Notes: generated from the sequence alone by a model not told the origin. Positions 42,519 through 45,907 are shown, counted from the first letter of the stretch. The stretch is DNA of 64,000 bases from an uncultured bacterium (GCA_963695095.1 CAVOFT010000001.1:192001-256000); one strand, 5' to 3'. Program-made: numbers and translations.

Positions 42519-42535
42519 TTGGCACGGCACCTGAG
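42519..42535 (+). promoter_or_regulatory. Candidate sigma54 (-24/-12) promoter
   Basis: TTGGCACG-GCAC-CTGAG versus consensus TGGCACG-N4-TTGC (perfect -24, imperfect -12). Preceded by an AT-rich tract (42469-42503) and followed by AAGGAGG and ATG 42571. Confidence 0.55.
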
Positions 42536-42570
42536 CCCTTCGGAGATACCCCAAATCCAAGGAGGCACGG

Positions 42571-42918
42571 ATGCGCCCGAAGCGATTCCAGCGAGATATG
42601 GGCCATGCACTCTTGCTGATGCTCTTGGCAGCCCCTCTAGCCGGTACAAGCCCAGCTCTTGCCGCCGGCTCTGACCTTCCTTCAGGCGACGATTACGATG
42701 ACGGAGCAAACATCTGCATGCTGGGACGATTGGCTACTCCGCATCGCAGCACAGGCGAAGGCGCGCCGGAAGGGGCGGTCCGTCGCCGCCATGGCGACGA
42801 CGATGACGATGGAGTAAATCTGACTTCACTGCGACTGTATCTCACCCCGCCGCTCTTGATCCCGATGGCGACCCGGCCCGCCATGTCTTCGATTTGTGCG
42901 CGCTGGCAAATCCATTAG
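42571..42918 (+). CDS. Small secreted peptide precursor 1 (two GDDxDDG motifs)
   Basis: Perfect RBS AAGGAGG; basic N-region, hydrophobic core and ALA-A cleavage site; SGDDYDDGA and HGDDDDDGV. The 3' end may be frameshifted (another frame gives DPDGDP...LPRWLRR). Confidence 0.68.
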   Translation: MRPKRFQRDMGHALLLMLLAAPLAGTSPALAAGSDLPSGDDYDDGANICMLGRLATPHRSTGEGAPEGAVRRRHGDDDDDGVNLTSLRLYLTPPLLIPMATRPAMSSICARWQIH

Positions 42919-42980
42919 GCGCCGCCGTCCCAGGGGCGACGCCCACACTGCAGCTTCCGCGCTGGCTCAGGCGCTCCACT

Positions 42981-43010
42981 CCCTGGCCGCCCCTTTTGGG
43001 GCGGCCAGGG
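42981..43010. terminator. 13-bp perfect hairpin between the two peptide genes
   Basis: CCCTGGCCGCCCC-TTTT-GGGGCGGCCAGGG; no clear U-tract. Confidence 0.55.
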
Positions 43011-43255
43011 GCGCGAGGCCCCACTTCTCAATTGACCATCCCCAGCGTCTCGGCTAAACTTCCTTACGCGTTTCAGGATCAGGGACTAGGGGTCAGGATT
43101 CCCAGCGACTTCCCCGCCCTCCCCATGGCCACATCACTTTGTGGCGCACCCGTTGCTGGATCCTGCCGGCATACTCCACCGGTACCCCATCCCCATAACT
43201 GGTCCCCGCCGCTACCAGGGGATCAGGCTTGGCGTAAACGCTAAGGAGCTTCTTC

Positions 43256-43504
43256 ATGGTTAGGCGAAGGCGCACCAAGCTCTGGCCGCTATTCCTGGCG
43301 CTTCTTCTCATCTCCCTTTGGAGCACGCCACTCTTCGCCCGCGAGCCCCAATCAGGACCCGGAGGGCTACAATCTGCGAGAAGCATCGAAGCTGATGGTG
43401 ACGATGATGACCAAGGGAGGCACAGTCGTCTGCGTAACCACATCTGGTTCTTGCAACGAGCTACTGCAGGACACTTCGCTGGGTCGGTAGGACTCGAGCC
43501 GTGA
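43256..43504 (+). CDS. Small secreted peptide precursor 2 (GDDDDQG motif)
   Basis: RBS AAGGAG; MVRRRRTK-LWPLFLALLLISLW-STPLFA signal peptide; DGDDDDQGR; basic/Trp-containing tail. Confidence 0.72.
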   Translation: MVRRRRTKLWPLFLALLLISLWSTPLFAREPQSGPGGLQSARSIEADGDDDDQGRHSRLRNHIWFLQRATAGHFAGSVGLEP

Positions 43505-43519
43505 CAAGGAAGCGGGCCG

Positions 43520-45907
43520 ATGACTGAAGCGGAAGATGATTCGAGATTCGTCCTAGGATGGGATCATATCCCGGACGAGTTGCTTAACGATCTCCAGGCC
43601 GTTGAGTAGTCGGGTCTCTCGCCTAGCGTCGAGATGCAGCGGCCACTTCGCTTTCGCGTGGCACTTTCTGGCAAGTACGACCTGGCGCCTCACGCCGCCT
43701 TCTGGAAGGCCGAGGAACCACCACTTCGGCGACACCCAGATGGAGCTTAGCAATCTACTCCTGAGCAACCAGGGCCTATCTCGACGTTGCGGAAGGAGCC
43801 CGAGCTCGTGCAGCATGGGAGACCTTGACTCAATTGACCGCGGGGATGGGCTTGAGCCGATAGATCTGCTTCGCGGATTGGAAGCGCTGGAAGGGACGCA
43901 GCGATCCTACGGCGCGGCGAGGTGAACGCGCGGAGCAGGTCCTGATGCATGCCCGACATCTCGCCGAAAGACGTGGCGTTCCCGCGCTGCTTGGGATGGC
44001 GCATGTGCAATTGGGAATCCTTAGCAAGACCCGTGGGGACTACAGTCTATGCCGCAAGGTACTTTGAAATGGCGCTTCAGGATGCAATTCCGAGAGTCGT
44101 CATAGCCGGAGCGATCTGTGAGTTCGCGCACCGAGCAACCCGATGATTCGCTGGAGGAAGCACGGCCAGCTTCACGATCGGCGGCGTCCATGGCTGGAGA
44201 TCGTTCGCAAGCCGTCACCAATGCGGTAGGCACCATGTGCTCTACCTCAACGAATTCGCCCGCCTGCACATCGCCCTCGAGGATGAGCACGAAGCCCGCA
44301 AGCACATCGAGATGATCGCGCAGGCCACGGACGAACACACGCCCATCCGCAGCCGCGTCATCAGCCACGAAGTGCGTGCCGACTACCACAAGCTCCGCGG
44401 CGAATGGAAAGAAGCCCTGGCCGCTATCGACGCCGGGCTCGAGCTGGCCTACGAAATCTCCGAGCAGAACGACCTGGTCGGCGAGCTGCTGCGTCGCCGC
44501 GCCCGCGCTCTCTACGAGCTCGCGCGCGACGACGAAGCCTTCGCGGCGGCCAAGCGGAGCCTCGAAGTCTGCGAGCGCGTCGGCGAAGTCTACGAGATCG
44601 GCGCGCTCTTCCGCACGCTGGGCCTCCTCGCCGAGCGCCGCAGCGACTTCGCCGAGGCCGAGAACCTGCTGCTGAAGGCCGTCGAGTTCTACCGCGACAA
44701 GGACGAGAAGTACGAGCGCGCCTTCAGCCACCTCGCGCTGGCCGGCTTCTACGAGCGTGTCCATGCCACCCGTAAACGGGAAGACGACCTCCGCGAGGCC
44801 TTCCGCCACACCGCCAGCGCGCTCGGCCTCTTCGATGAGATGGGCATCGCGCCGCGCGTCGCCGAGGGCCGCGCCCGCCTGGACGCCATCAGCGAGCGCT
44901 TGCCGAGCAAGCCCTTCACGCCGCCCGACGGTCAGACACTCGCCGCCCTGGGCAAGGCGCACGGCATCATCAGTGCCGATGCCTCGATCGCCAATTTGCT
45001 GGAAGTGCTCGACACCGTGGCGCCCTCGGACGCCGCCGTGCTCATCACGGGCGAAACCGGCACCGGCAAGGAGCTCTTTGCGCGCGCGCTGCACAAGCTG
45101 AGCGGCCGCAAGGGCGACCTCGTCATCGTCAACTGCGCGGCCATCCCCGACGAGCTCATGGAGAGCGAGCTCTTCGGCCACCTCAAGGGCTCCTTCACCG
45201 GCGCCCATCGCGACCGCAACGGCAAGTTCGCCCAGGCCGACAAGGGCACGCTCTTCCTCGACGAGATCGGCGACCTCAGCCCGCGCCTCCAGGCCAAGCT
45301 CCTGCGCGTGCTGCAGGACGGCATCTACAGCCCCGTCGGTTCGGACGAGGACTGCCATGCGGACGTCCGCGTGGTCAGCGCCACCAACCGCGACCTGCGC
45401 GCGCGGGTGGCCGACGGCCGCTTCCGCCGCGACCTGCTCTATCGCCTGAACCACGTGGTGCTCGCCCTGCCGCCCCTGCGCGAGCGCGGCGACGACGCGG
45501 TGCTGCTCGCCACCTACTTCCTGCACGAGGCGAGCACGCGCCTGGGCCGCAAGCTCGTGCTCGACCCGCACGCGGCCGACAAGATTCGCGAGTACCCCTG
45601 GCCCGGCAACGTGCGCGAGCTGCAGAACCTCGTGCGCCGCCTGGCGCTGTTCGCCCGCGACACCGGCCGCCTCAGCGTGGACTTCCTGCCCGAGAGCGTG
45701 ATCACGCCGGTGGAGGACTTCAGCAACGACCTCGCCGCCATCCTGCTCAAGGCCGAGAAGGACGCCATCGTCGCCGCCATCGTCCGCGCCCGCGGCAACA
45801 AGGCGGCGGCGGCCCGCATGCTCGGCGTCAGCCGCAGCACCCTGAACGACAAGATCGCCCGCCTCGACCTCAGCGTCGAGCGCCTCGCCCGCGCTACGCG
45901 GGCCTAA
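43520..45907 (+). CDS. TPR-domain sigma54-dependent enhancer-binding protein (TPR-AAA+-Fis HTH); 5' third fragmented by indels/stops
   Basis: Intact frame 44237-45907: TPR helices, GETGTGKE, ESELFGH.KGSFTGA, LFLDEIG, RRDLLYRL, WPGNVREL, HTH. Upstream: AAGGA RBS and ATG 43520, and TPR-like pieces in shifting frames (AEQVLMHARHLAERRGVPALLGMAHVQLGILSKTRGDY from 43930; AARYFEMAL from 44051). Confidence 0.85.

Follow-up and report, generated by a model that had tools for sequence, protein, structure and literature searches.

The stretch examined here, referred to as the window, comprises 64,000 nucleotides (nt) of DNA from an uncultured bacterium (GCA_963695095.1 CAVOFT010000001.1:192001-256000). 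Between positions 42519 and 45907 it carries two small open reading frames (ORFs) that are followed by a gene for a sigma-54 transcription activator with a sensor built of tetratricopeptide repeats (TPRs). The proximal small ORF and the activator are proposed to form a conserved two-gene cassette that most likely specifies a cognate exported peptide and the cytoplasmic sensor that controls sigma-54 transcription in response to it, with an extra precursor gene in this genus; we give this reading about an even chance. It concerns the following features:

42519-42534, plus strand: sigma-54-like element before ORF1, TTGGCACG (42519-42526) ... CTGAG, with a good -24 and a poor -12 half
42571-42918, plus strand: ORF1, distal small, putatively exported protein of 115 amino acids with two acidic motifs
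43118-43129, plus strand: conserved box 5' of the -24 element, CCTCCCCATGGC
43142-43157, plus strand: best candidate sigma-54 promoter, TGGCGCACCCGTTGCT, 98 nt before ORF2
43256-43504, plus strand: ORF2, proximal small, putatively exported protein of 82 amino acids that ends 15 nt before the activator ATG
43520-45907, plus strand: activator gene of 2388 nt, with TPRs, a sigma-54 AAA+ domain and a Fis-type helix-turn-helix (HTH)
43520-44236, plus strand: N-terminal variable TPR module of the activator (N-module), about 239 codons distributed across three frames without an open frame
44237-45907, plus strand: open remainder of the activator, 556 amino acids from a GTG, with the conserved TPR half, the AAA+ domain, the AAA lid and the HTH

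The original prediction, which had been made from this DNA alone, described two small ORFs with a strong ribosome-binding site and a signal peptide. Both were confirmed as open frames, preceded by the Shine-Dalgarno boxes AAGGAGG (42559-42565) for ORF1 and AAGGAG (43243-43248) for ORF2. Their N-termini resemble signal peptides on a heuristic reading, as basic residues are followed by a hydrophobic run and AxA-like sites (ALA-A and LFA-R). The acidic motif that had been reported to occur three times was located as GDDYDDG (42685-42705) and GDDDDDG (42793-42813) in ORF1 and as GDDDDQG (43397-43417) in ORF2, and the reported 15-nt spacing between ORF2 and the activator agrees with a stop at 43504 and an ATG at 43520. 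Among the 17,439 six-frame ORFs of 40-220 amino acids in the whole 3.64-Mb genome the pattern GDD[DWYF]D[DQE] occurs in just three, including both ORF1 and ORF2. The motif is therefore specific for this locus and its presence here is not due to chance. Neither ORF matched a family in Pfam or NCBIfam. ORF1 is a multi-motif paralogue of the proximal ORF.

The third gene had been described as a gene of about 2.39 kb that encodes TPRs, an AAA+ domain with a GSFTGA loop and a Fis HTH and that lacks a receiver, PAS or GAF domain. The domain composition stood, but the region 43520-44236 was found not to be open, which the original prediction had implied by its mention of a repaired TPR domain. A Pfam search of 44237-45907 identified TPR_12, Sigma54_activat (E 4.4e-65), AAA_lid_14 and HTH_8 (E 1.3e-10, residues 506-542) and detected no receiver, PAS or GAF domain. 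Walker A (GETGTGKE, 45050-45073) and Walker B (LFLDEIG, 45251-45271) were present, together with the GSFTGA loop (45188-45205), which is invariant across an alignment of eight sequences. The NCBIfam equivalog models that matched the activator covered the AAA+ core alone and all scored under their cut-offs. Judged by an AAA+ domain with Walker A and B, a GAFTGA-type loop and a C-terminal Fis-type HTH, the protein bears the marks of a bacterial enhancer-binding protein (bEBP).

Orthologues of the activator were sought with the conserved TPR part; alignment over the full length only drew generic activators via their AAA+ motifs. Ten of the other 11 family genomes have an orthologue; its open frame encodes 725-827 amino acids, versus 586 in the window genome. 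In all 12 orthologous loci with upstream DNA the activator is preceded by a small ORF with a signal peptide, the motif GDD[DWY]DD and a hydrophobic tail. These loci consist of the 10 genomes and the metagenome loci L150 and L153; the metagenome scan had given six loci, of which L151 and L152 begin within the gene and were dropped, while L148 and L149 appear to duplicate contigs of genomes G001 and G011. The small ORF of G008 is cut by the contig end, with NIGDDDDD and a hydrophobic tail still visible. The position of the small-ORF stop relative to the activator start could be read at both ends in 11 loci (window included) and ranged from a 23-nt overlap to a 40-nt gap: the two genes overlap in L110, L111 and L112 and abut in L150, and the gap between them is 1-2 nt in L114, L115 and L116 and 15-40 nt in the window, L108, L109 and L113. 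In L153 the activator comes directly after the small ORF.

More distant TPR-sigma-54 activators of about 1020-1090 amino acids occur in other families of the same class. For 23 of the 31 non-orthologue TPR matches the upstream DNA was inspected, and all 23 activators are preceded by an ORF whose start resembles a signal peptide and which contains an acidic G/D motif; in 22 of the 23 this ORF also has a hydrophobic aromatic tail (17 of 20 loci were recognized by an automatic filter and three by frame reading; three further loci were read separately). The motifs at this level (L172-L194) are of the types GDPGDAGDG[LYF]G, GD[AG]DD[LIV]AG and PGDDDxPNR. The condition under which the original prediction was to be refuted, homologues without upstream secreted small ORFs or without the motif, did not occur in any of these orthologous or distant loci, the latter carrying related motifs. 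Many proteins of the GD[AG]DD[LIV]AG type were seen to end in Trp-rich tails, e.g. ..WW.Y... A search of 1.84 billion proteins with a profile of the sensor yielded six representatives at E <= 1e-30 and 1035 at E <= 1e-10, and 24 out of 24 matches picked from 150 listed (single-stretch matches, 740-1040 amino acids) combined TPRs with Sigma54_activat. On these numbers the orthologous family of activators of about 800 amino acids is narrow but the TPR-sigma-54 architecture wide.

The family of the small protein comprised 20 members in a profile search of 5.8 billion proteins. None has an assigned name and two carry the source label Candidatus Krumholzibacteria or Krumholzibacteriota. They share a common plan: the signal peptide and its AxA site are followed by a linker of the Pro-rich or GPEDY type, by an invariant G-D-D-x-D motif and by a tail. 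The signal-peptide calls were based on heuristics (charge, hydrophobicity and AxA sites): 18 of the 20 members have 3-5 Lys/Arg within the first 12 residues and a 12-residue hydrophobic stretch with a mean Kyte-Doolittle value of 2.3-3.6, and the remaining two are N-terminally truncated records. AxA-like sites also occur in the family. The tails are 22-27 residues long (46 in one member), hydrophobic and aromatic, usually with one Trp and one or two basic residues. C-terminal sorting signals such as PEP-CTERM and its kin consist of a signature motif, a transmembrane helix and a basic cluster; the terminal basic cluster is absent from the tails of most members of the present family. When 12 small ORFs were compared with NCBIfam no significant model was found (best E 0.059-0.2, each for a single member), and a protein atlas search with the small protein gave a best score of 0.87, which is a lead only, all matches being hypothetical proteins. 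Among 11 relatives the proximal ORF encodes 73-90 amino acids in 10 and 107 amino acids in L110. Distal ORFs with two to five motif copies were observed in this genus (G000, G001 and G002) and in L150; G002 has five copies, G001 two and ORF1 of the window two. By their sequence these distal ORFs look like multi-copy precursors.

Two side observations were made on the small proteins. P0028 and P0031 have a near-identical signal peptide, linker and motif and differ in their tails; they are probably encoded on one 20,410-nt contig, and this genome may have a second cassette or a spare gene for the peptide. The residues behind the motif often read D-F-N-I-T, A-N-I-[ST] or V-N-L-T in small ORFs of genus g1 and G008 (L108 6133-6369, L117 1-165, P0030 and P0033) and in the window at 42793-42830. 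They resemble the bacterial N-glycosylation sequon D/E-x-N-x-S/T; a sequon as a general feature was dropped, since the pattern is absent from genus g3 and several members have a His instead.

Comparison of closely related genomes revealed a sharply bounded variable region. Between the window and G001 the DNA aligned at 84-87% identity over 40050-42319 and 44243-45906, and 44237-45907 is 84-87% identical to both G001 and G002, whereas 42320-44242 had no DNA match to either of these two genomes of the same genus. The same partition was observed in the activator proteins. G002 and P0003 are 30% identical in the N-module and 100% in both the C-terminal TPR half and the AAA+ and HTH domains. For G010 and G011 the corresponding values are 36, 95 and 93%, for G004 and G009 they are 56, 95 and 92%, and for G002 and G001 they are 25, 84 and 85%. 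The edges could be placed in the DNA of G004 and G009, which align without gaps from the start codon of the small ORF on. Identity is 80-86% over a stretch that starts 66 nt before the small ORF and takes in the signal peptide, the linker and the motif. At the first tail codon it drops to 45-70% and stays in this range across the N-terminal TPR module as far as the YLNEF boundary, beyond which it is 81-93%. In eight out of eight loci the G+C content of this block is 4.5-12 points under that of the rest of the gene (about 10 points in seven). The peptide tail and the first approximately 235 residues of the sensor thus are one hypervariable block of low G+C content with sharp edges. Such joint variation is what a cognate signal and receptor pair predicts and, at the level of sequence, it supports this part of the interpretation, because tail and N-module vary as one block between near-identical genomes.

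Two other explanations bear on the same block. The cytoplasmic TPR module could hold the hydrophobic tail of the precursor before export, so that export via Sec would release the partner or lower its level and thereby switch the activator, a logic known from IpgC-MxiE and SicA-InvF, with their TPR class II type III secretion chaperones, and from the export of FlgM. The partners would then meet in the cytoplasm and no re-import would be needed; the genes are tightly coupled, a co-varying tail and sensor fit this explanation equally well, and TPR domains of known chaperones bind hydrophobic helices of secreted proteins. However, Sec substrates with strong signal peptides normally leave the cytoplasm fast, and a secretion-gated switch provides no reason for a conserved acidic motif that faces the periplasm or for precursors with several motifs. 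We consider it rather unlikely. Alternatively, the tail might be an antagonistic, bacteriocin-like membrane-active peptide under diversifying selection and the TPR module a producer-specific sensor or immunity partner instead of a quorum receptor. The tails are amphipathic, rich in Trp and other aromatic residues and hypervariable among close strains, P0028 and P0031 combine a shared leader with different tails, and polymorphic toxin loci show a similar block variation. But neither a dedicated exporter nor an immunity membrane protein nor a modification enzyme was found to be conserved beside the pair, and a transcription activator would be an unusual immunity factor, which makes this explanation quite unlikely.

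The activator of the window itself is interrupted in the variable block. Its homologues are about 240 amino acids longer at the N-terminus than its open part. The missing N-module was found to be fully present in 43520-44236, collinear with the homologue profile and spread over three frames. The profile matched in order in frame 2 (43541-43597), frame 0 (43632-43676), frame 1 (43924-44061, E 6e-8), frame 1 again (44125-44205) and frame 2 from 44225 on, with two frame-1 stops between 44062 and 44124. This amounts to at least five frame disruptions, each of which is compatible with an insertion or deletion (indel). ORF2 seems to be affected as well: its signal peptide is close to those of P0026 and P0025, the GPEDYH segment of the family is legible only in the +1 frame, as DPEGYNL, and its sequence in the window is probably distorted by indels. 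The frames of other genes were checked with 137 long stop-free segments with a high G+C content at third codon positions, taken from one 280-kb contig of G002, against the first 600 kb of the window genome. An orthologue was present for 78 segments, and 15 of these 78 are split over two to four frames in the window genome; two of the 15 look like paralogue artefacts. Examples of split genes are G000:C1:3320603-3321740 and C1:132500-135600. The assembly is frame-broken in general, affecting approximately one in six long genes, and readings of single genes from this genome should allow for indels. Since long genes across the assembly are also split, the breaks in the N-module are more likely to be assembly indels than decay, as far as can be judged from the sequence; the damage in the N-module is denser than the assembly's average. 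A search of sequencing runs listed one DNA run, which contained 0.05 of the sampled words, and no RNA run. P0010 (431 amino acids, 94% identical over the conserved TPR part), an orthologue from a close relative on a 370-kb contig, is frameshifted mid-gene and is a second broken copy on a long contig, possibly from another long-read assembly.

The explanation that the small ORFs arose by chance, or are what is left of a locus that has decayed in this genome, could draw on these disruptions and on the deviation of ORF2 from the family consensus. Against this stand the recurrence of the ORF family at every one of the 12 orthologous loci, its 20 database members, the split frames elsewhere in the assembly and the compatibility of every N-module break with an indel. 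Chance or decay is regarded as highly improbable.

A single rpoN gene is present in the genome (G000:C1:2454036-2454509; Sigma54_DBD 217 bits, 464-amino-acid open frame). The original prediction had placed a sigma-54-like element before the ORFs. Its -24 half holds, but its -12 half, CTGAG, is poor and without GC; the element with TTGGCACG lies 36 nt before the ATG of ORF1, and TTGGCACG occurs 23 times in the genome. Before the distal ORFs of relatives CTTGGCGTGAATTCTGAGC was found in G001 and TTGGCACG in G002 at the same 36-nt distance; L150 has TGGCAGGTGATTTGCC. A better site was identified before ORF2 at 43142-43157, where TGGCGCACCCGTTGCT is one of the nine exact TGGC[AG]C-N5-TTGC[AT] sites on both strands of the 3.64-Mb genome (shuffle p 0.003). 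Its counterparts are TGGCGCAAGCTGTGCA in G002 and CGGCCGCCCGGTTGCA in G001. The CCTCCCCATGGC box also occurs in G002 (L108 5993) and, with one change, in G001 (L109 5905), the cassette being otherwise unalignable. A search of the three same-genus cassettes for a shared upstream activator site found only this box and the motif-coding repeats, and no clear inverted repeat. In other relatives GG-N10-GC elements occupy positions that are conserved within subgroups. The sigma-54 part of the interpretation finds support in the presence of rpoN and of a strong -24/-12 match before ORF2, and autoregulation of the cassette via sigma-54 is plausible from these sequence elements. In genus g3 (L111 5560-5776, L114, L115 and L116) the 250 nt before the small ORF contain a shared conserved leader region. 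A sigma-70-like TTGAA[TA]-17-TA[GA][CGT]AT element lies in it, and the stretch that separates the GG-N10-GC element from the start codon holds the conserved block ..TAGTCAGTCTGATAG..GCCAGCCCC... The region may contain a second promoter, or the 5' leader may be structured.

A sigma-54 promoter in front of the pair would suit a target gene as well as a signal gene, and so would the operon layout. The small protein could therefore be a regulated output or a feedback modulator in the envelope, i.e. a co-transcribed acidic periplasmic or membrane protein for instance for cation binding or stress buffering, with the activator sensing another protein or a metabolite. ZraP-ZraSR and CpxP-CpxAR follow such a logic. 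The conserved poly-Asp could bind divalent cations and some tails are hydrophobic enough for membrane anchoring. Furthermore, the small ORF is the sole constant candidate target, because the genes next to the cassette are not conserved between genera. This explanation, however, does not account for a variable block that runs with sharp edges from the tail into the N-module next to a conserved leader and motif on one side and the conserved remainder of the activator on the other, nor for the precursor-like distal ORFs with several motifs. It is regarded as possible but not probable.

To return to the reading as a cognate pair, the fold of the sensor was examined with the TPR domain of G004, for which an AlphaFold2 model of 24 helices was obtained (pLDDT, i.e. 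predicted local distance difference test, 90.2). Foldseek ranked LGN/Pins and OGT first. Structural alignment of this model against all representatives gave the following matches:

APPBP2 with degron: Z 28.4
Rap of phage phi105 with peptide: Z 24.7 (root-mean-square deviation 3.5 Å over 327 residues)
MalT domain III: Z 24.1
NprR-NprX: Z 23.0
LGN/Pins: Z 22.5
OGT: Z 21.1
AimR: Z 19.1
PlcR-PapR: Z 17.6

As modelled, the sensor is of the peptide-binding type of TPR superhelix and not specifically of the RRNPP fold. A complex prediction with the G004 TPR domain (477 amino acids) and the mature small protein (50 amino acids) scored 0.03 and 0.02 relative to a mark of 0.32, which is no evidence either way.

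An RRNPP-like circuit had been put forward in the original prediction. According to a published description, the RRNPP signature consists of a propeptide of 10-100 amino acids, Sec secretion, a receptor of about 250-500 amino acids with TPRs, and adjacent genes (PMC10075063); as given there, the detection procedure filters out receptors of the size and domain order seen here (PMC10075063). Measured against this description, the adjacency of the genes, the TPR content and the size of ORF2 (82 amino acids) agree, and heuristics indicate a Sec-type signal peptide, but ORF1 (115 amino acids) lies outside the propeptide range, the receptor has about 795 amino acids, its TPRs are in the N-terminal approximately 470 residues instead of C-terminal to the effector, and the fold is not RRNPP-specific. 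In Pfam and NCBIfam no sequence-family match of the activator to Rap, NprR, PlcR, PrgX or AimR was found. By this signature the pair is not a member of RRNPP; in the interpretation favoured here it works like an RRNPP or pherotype pair that has a sigma-54 motor as its output. Taken together, what had originally been observed at the locus was confirmed and its interpretation was supported in part, whereas for the mechanism the odds are about even.

This mechanism would proceed as follows. The Sec signal peptide of the small protein would be cleaved at the AxA site. The conserved linker and the poly-Asp motif GDD[DWY]DD would serve as a handling or processing site, and the variable, aromatic and hydrophobic tail of 22-27 residues as the specificity determinant. 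The variable N-terminal TPR module (about 235 amino acids) would read the tail and thereby gate the assembly of the AAA+ ring. An active ring would drive -24/-12 promoters, including that at 43142-43157 before the peptide-activator operon and probably also the promoter before ORF1, the distal multi-motif precursor. Export, cleavage, the route of the tail to the cytoplasm, its binding and the positive feedback are steps that we infer. In its widest form the proposal is that the diderm phylum Krumholzibacteriota uses strain-specific dialects of exported peptides which are read by the N-terminal TPRs of sigma-54 activators, an independent invention of RRNPP-style sensing in which poly-Asp motifs would release tail peptides from single- or multi-copy precursors; this extension is tentative and its chance is put somewhat below even.

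Several points weigh against a cognate peptide and sensor. We know of no route by which the tail could return across two membranes. The tails are long, and the hydrophobicity of some equals that of membrane anchors (best 15-mer Kyte-Doolittle 0.95-2.36), so that they may remain in the membrane instead of diffusing. The fold match is generic, APPBP2, MalT domain III and OGT scoring like the RRNPP receptors. The identities of tail and N-module are not significantly correlated (Spearman coefficient 0.29, p 0.08; 36 non-independent pairs from nine loci). Tail and N-module are moreover adjacent, and one recombination block could yield their joint variability without functional coupling. The sigma-54 score beats shuffles (p <= 0.05) in just three of 32 loci, while 11 of the 32 reach a score of 16 out of 19.5. 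Finally, the window's own receptor is broken as assembled and its ORF2 departs from the consensus of the family.

The proposed pair resembles known systems in different respects. In the RRNPP pairs of Bacillota and their phages and plasmids (Rap-Phr, NprR-NprX, PlcR-PapR and AimR-AimP) a gene for a small propeptide, of the Sec type there and putatively so here, likewise adjoins that of a cytoplasmic TPR receptor, the specificity part lies at the C-terminus of the propeptide, and the alleles are polymorphic between close strains. In the fold comparison their receptors rank with the best matches (Z 17.6-24.7). They differ in their output, which is an XRE HTH or phosphatase instead of a sigma-54 AAA+ domain with a Fis HTH, in their signal, which is a 5-10-mer instead of a putative hydrophobic tail of 22-27 residues behind poly-Asp, and in their hosts, which are Bacillota instead of a diderm phylum. 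The agrBDC locus of staphylococci and comQXP of Bacillus share with the cassette a contiguous hypervariable block that spans the signal and the sensing module between conserved flanks in near-identical genomes. Those loci use membrane histidine kinases as receptors and have a dedicated enzyme that modifies the peptide, whereas in the cassette a soluble sigma-54 activator would be the receptor and a gene for a modifying enzyme is not linked.

With the bEBPs NtrC, NifA, NorR, PspF, ZraR and LuxO the activator has the AAA+ domain, the GAFTGA-type loop and the C-terminal HTH_8 in common, but in place of a receiver, GAF, PAS or V4R domain it contains a TPR superhelix of about 470 amino acids as the sensor. 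In MalT a TPR-like superhelical sensor (Z 24.1) is also joined to an ATPase and an HTH, and the Pfam family TPR_MalT matched the activator weakly (E 9.7e-5, under the cut-off). MalT differs, as it is a STAND NTPase with a LuxR HTH that acts with sigma-70, senses maltotriose and has no paired exported peptide. ZraP is a small periplasmic protein that is expressed from a sigma-54 promoter next to its activator gene and feeds back on its system. In contrast to the present activator, ZraR acts as a response regulator controlled by a membrane kinase, and ZraP is not hypervariable and has no co-varying sensor. In the titles and abstracts of the literature no description of a TPR-sigma-54 activator paired with an exported peptide was found.

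The ability of cytoplasmic TPR receptors to sense exported peptides directly is regarded as characteristic of Bacillota and their mobile elements. If the proposed pairing is true, the logic of peptide/TPR signalling would be extended both to another cell plan and to another mechanism of transcription, a function would become available for a large set of unstudied TPR-sigma-54 activators, and the pairs G004/G009, G010/G011 and G002/P0003 would provide a natural allele series for the encoding of specificity. The cassette could be tested in a heterologous rpoN+ host, because it consists of only two genes.

The surroundings of the cassette contain four further features:

40043-41593, minus strand: B12-binding radical SAM protein with DUF4070, upstream and divergent
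41812-42396, minus strand: DUF2231 membrane protein, upstream and divergent
42981-43010, plus strand: hairpin after ORF1, 13 bp, perfect and GC-rich; terminator-like, without a T tract
43032-43060, plus strand: weak sigma-70-like match, TTGACC-17-TAAACT, 9 of 12 matches in a consensus scan

The 71-nt context of the hairpin folds at -45.1 kcal/mol (z -4.4), and none of 200 shuffles was as stable. The radical SAM and DUF2231 genes are syntenic in G001, and the DUF2231 gene also in G002; in other genera neither of them is linked to the cassette. The radical SAM/B12 gene was considered as a modifier of the peptide and rejected, since it lacks this linkage. Elsewhere in the genome there are two loci for SBP_bac_5 (Opp/Dpp-type) binding proteins, one of them with a frame-split gene; they indicate a capacity for peptide import only. 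In other genera MoxR is encoded upstream and proteins with Type IX secretion sorting domains are encoded nearby, and a diderm cell plan fits because of these sorting domains close to the cassette. In genus g3 the flanking genes encode large LVIVD-repeat and FlgD_ig proteins with Type IX C-terminal sorting domains; the coordinates of flanking proteins are L111 74-2593, L150 7622-9298 and L115 2923-3951.

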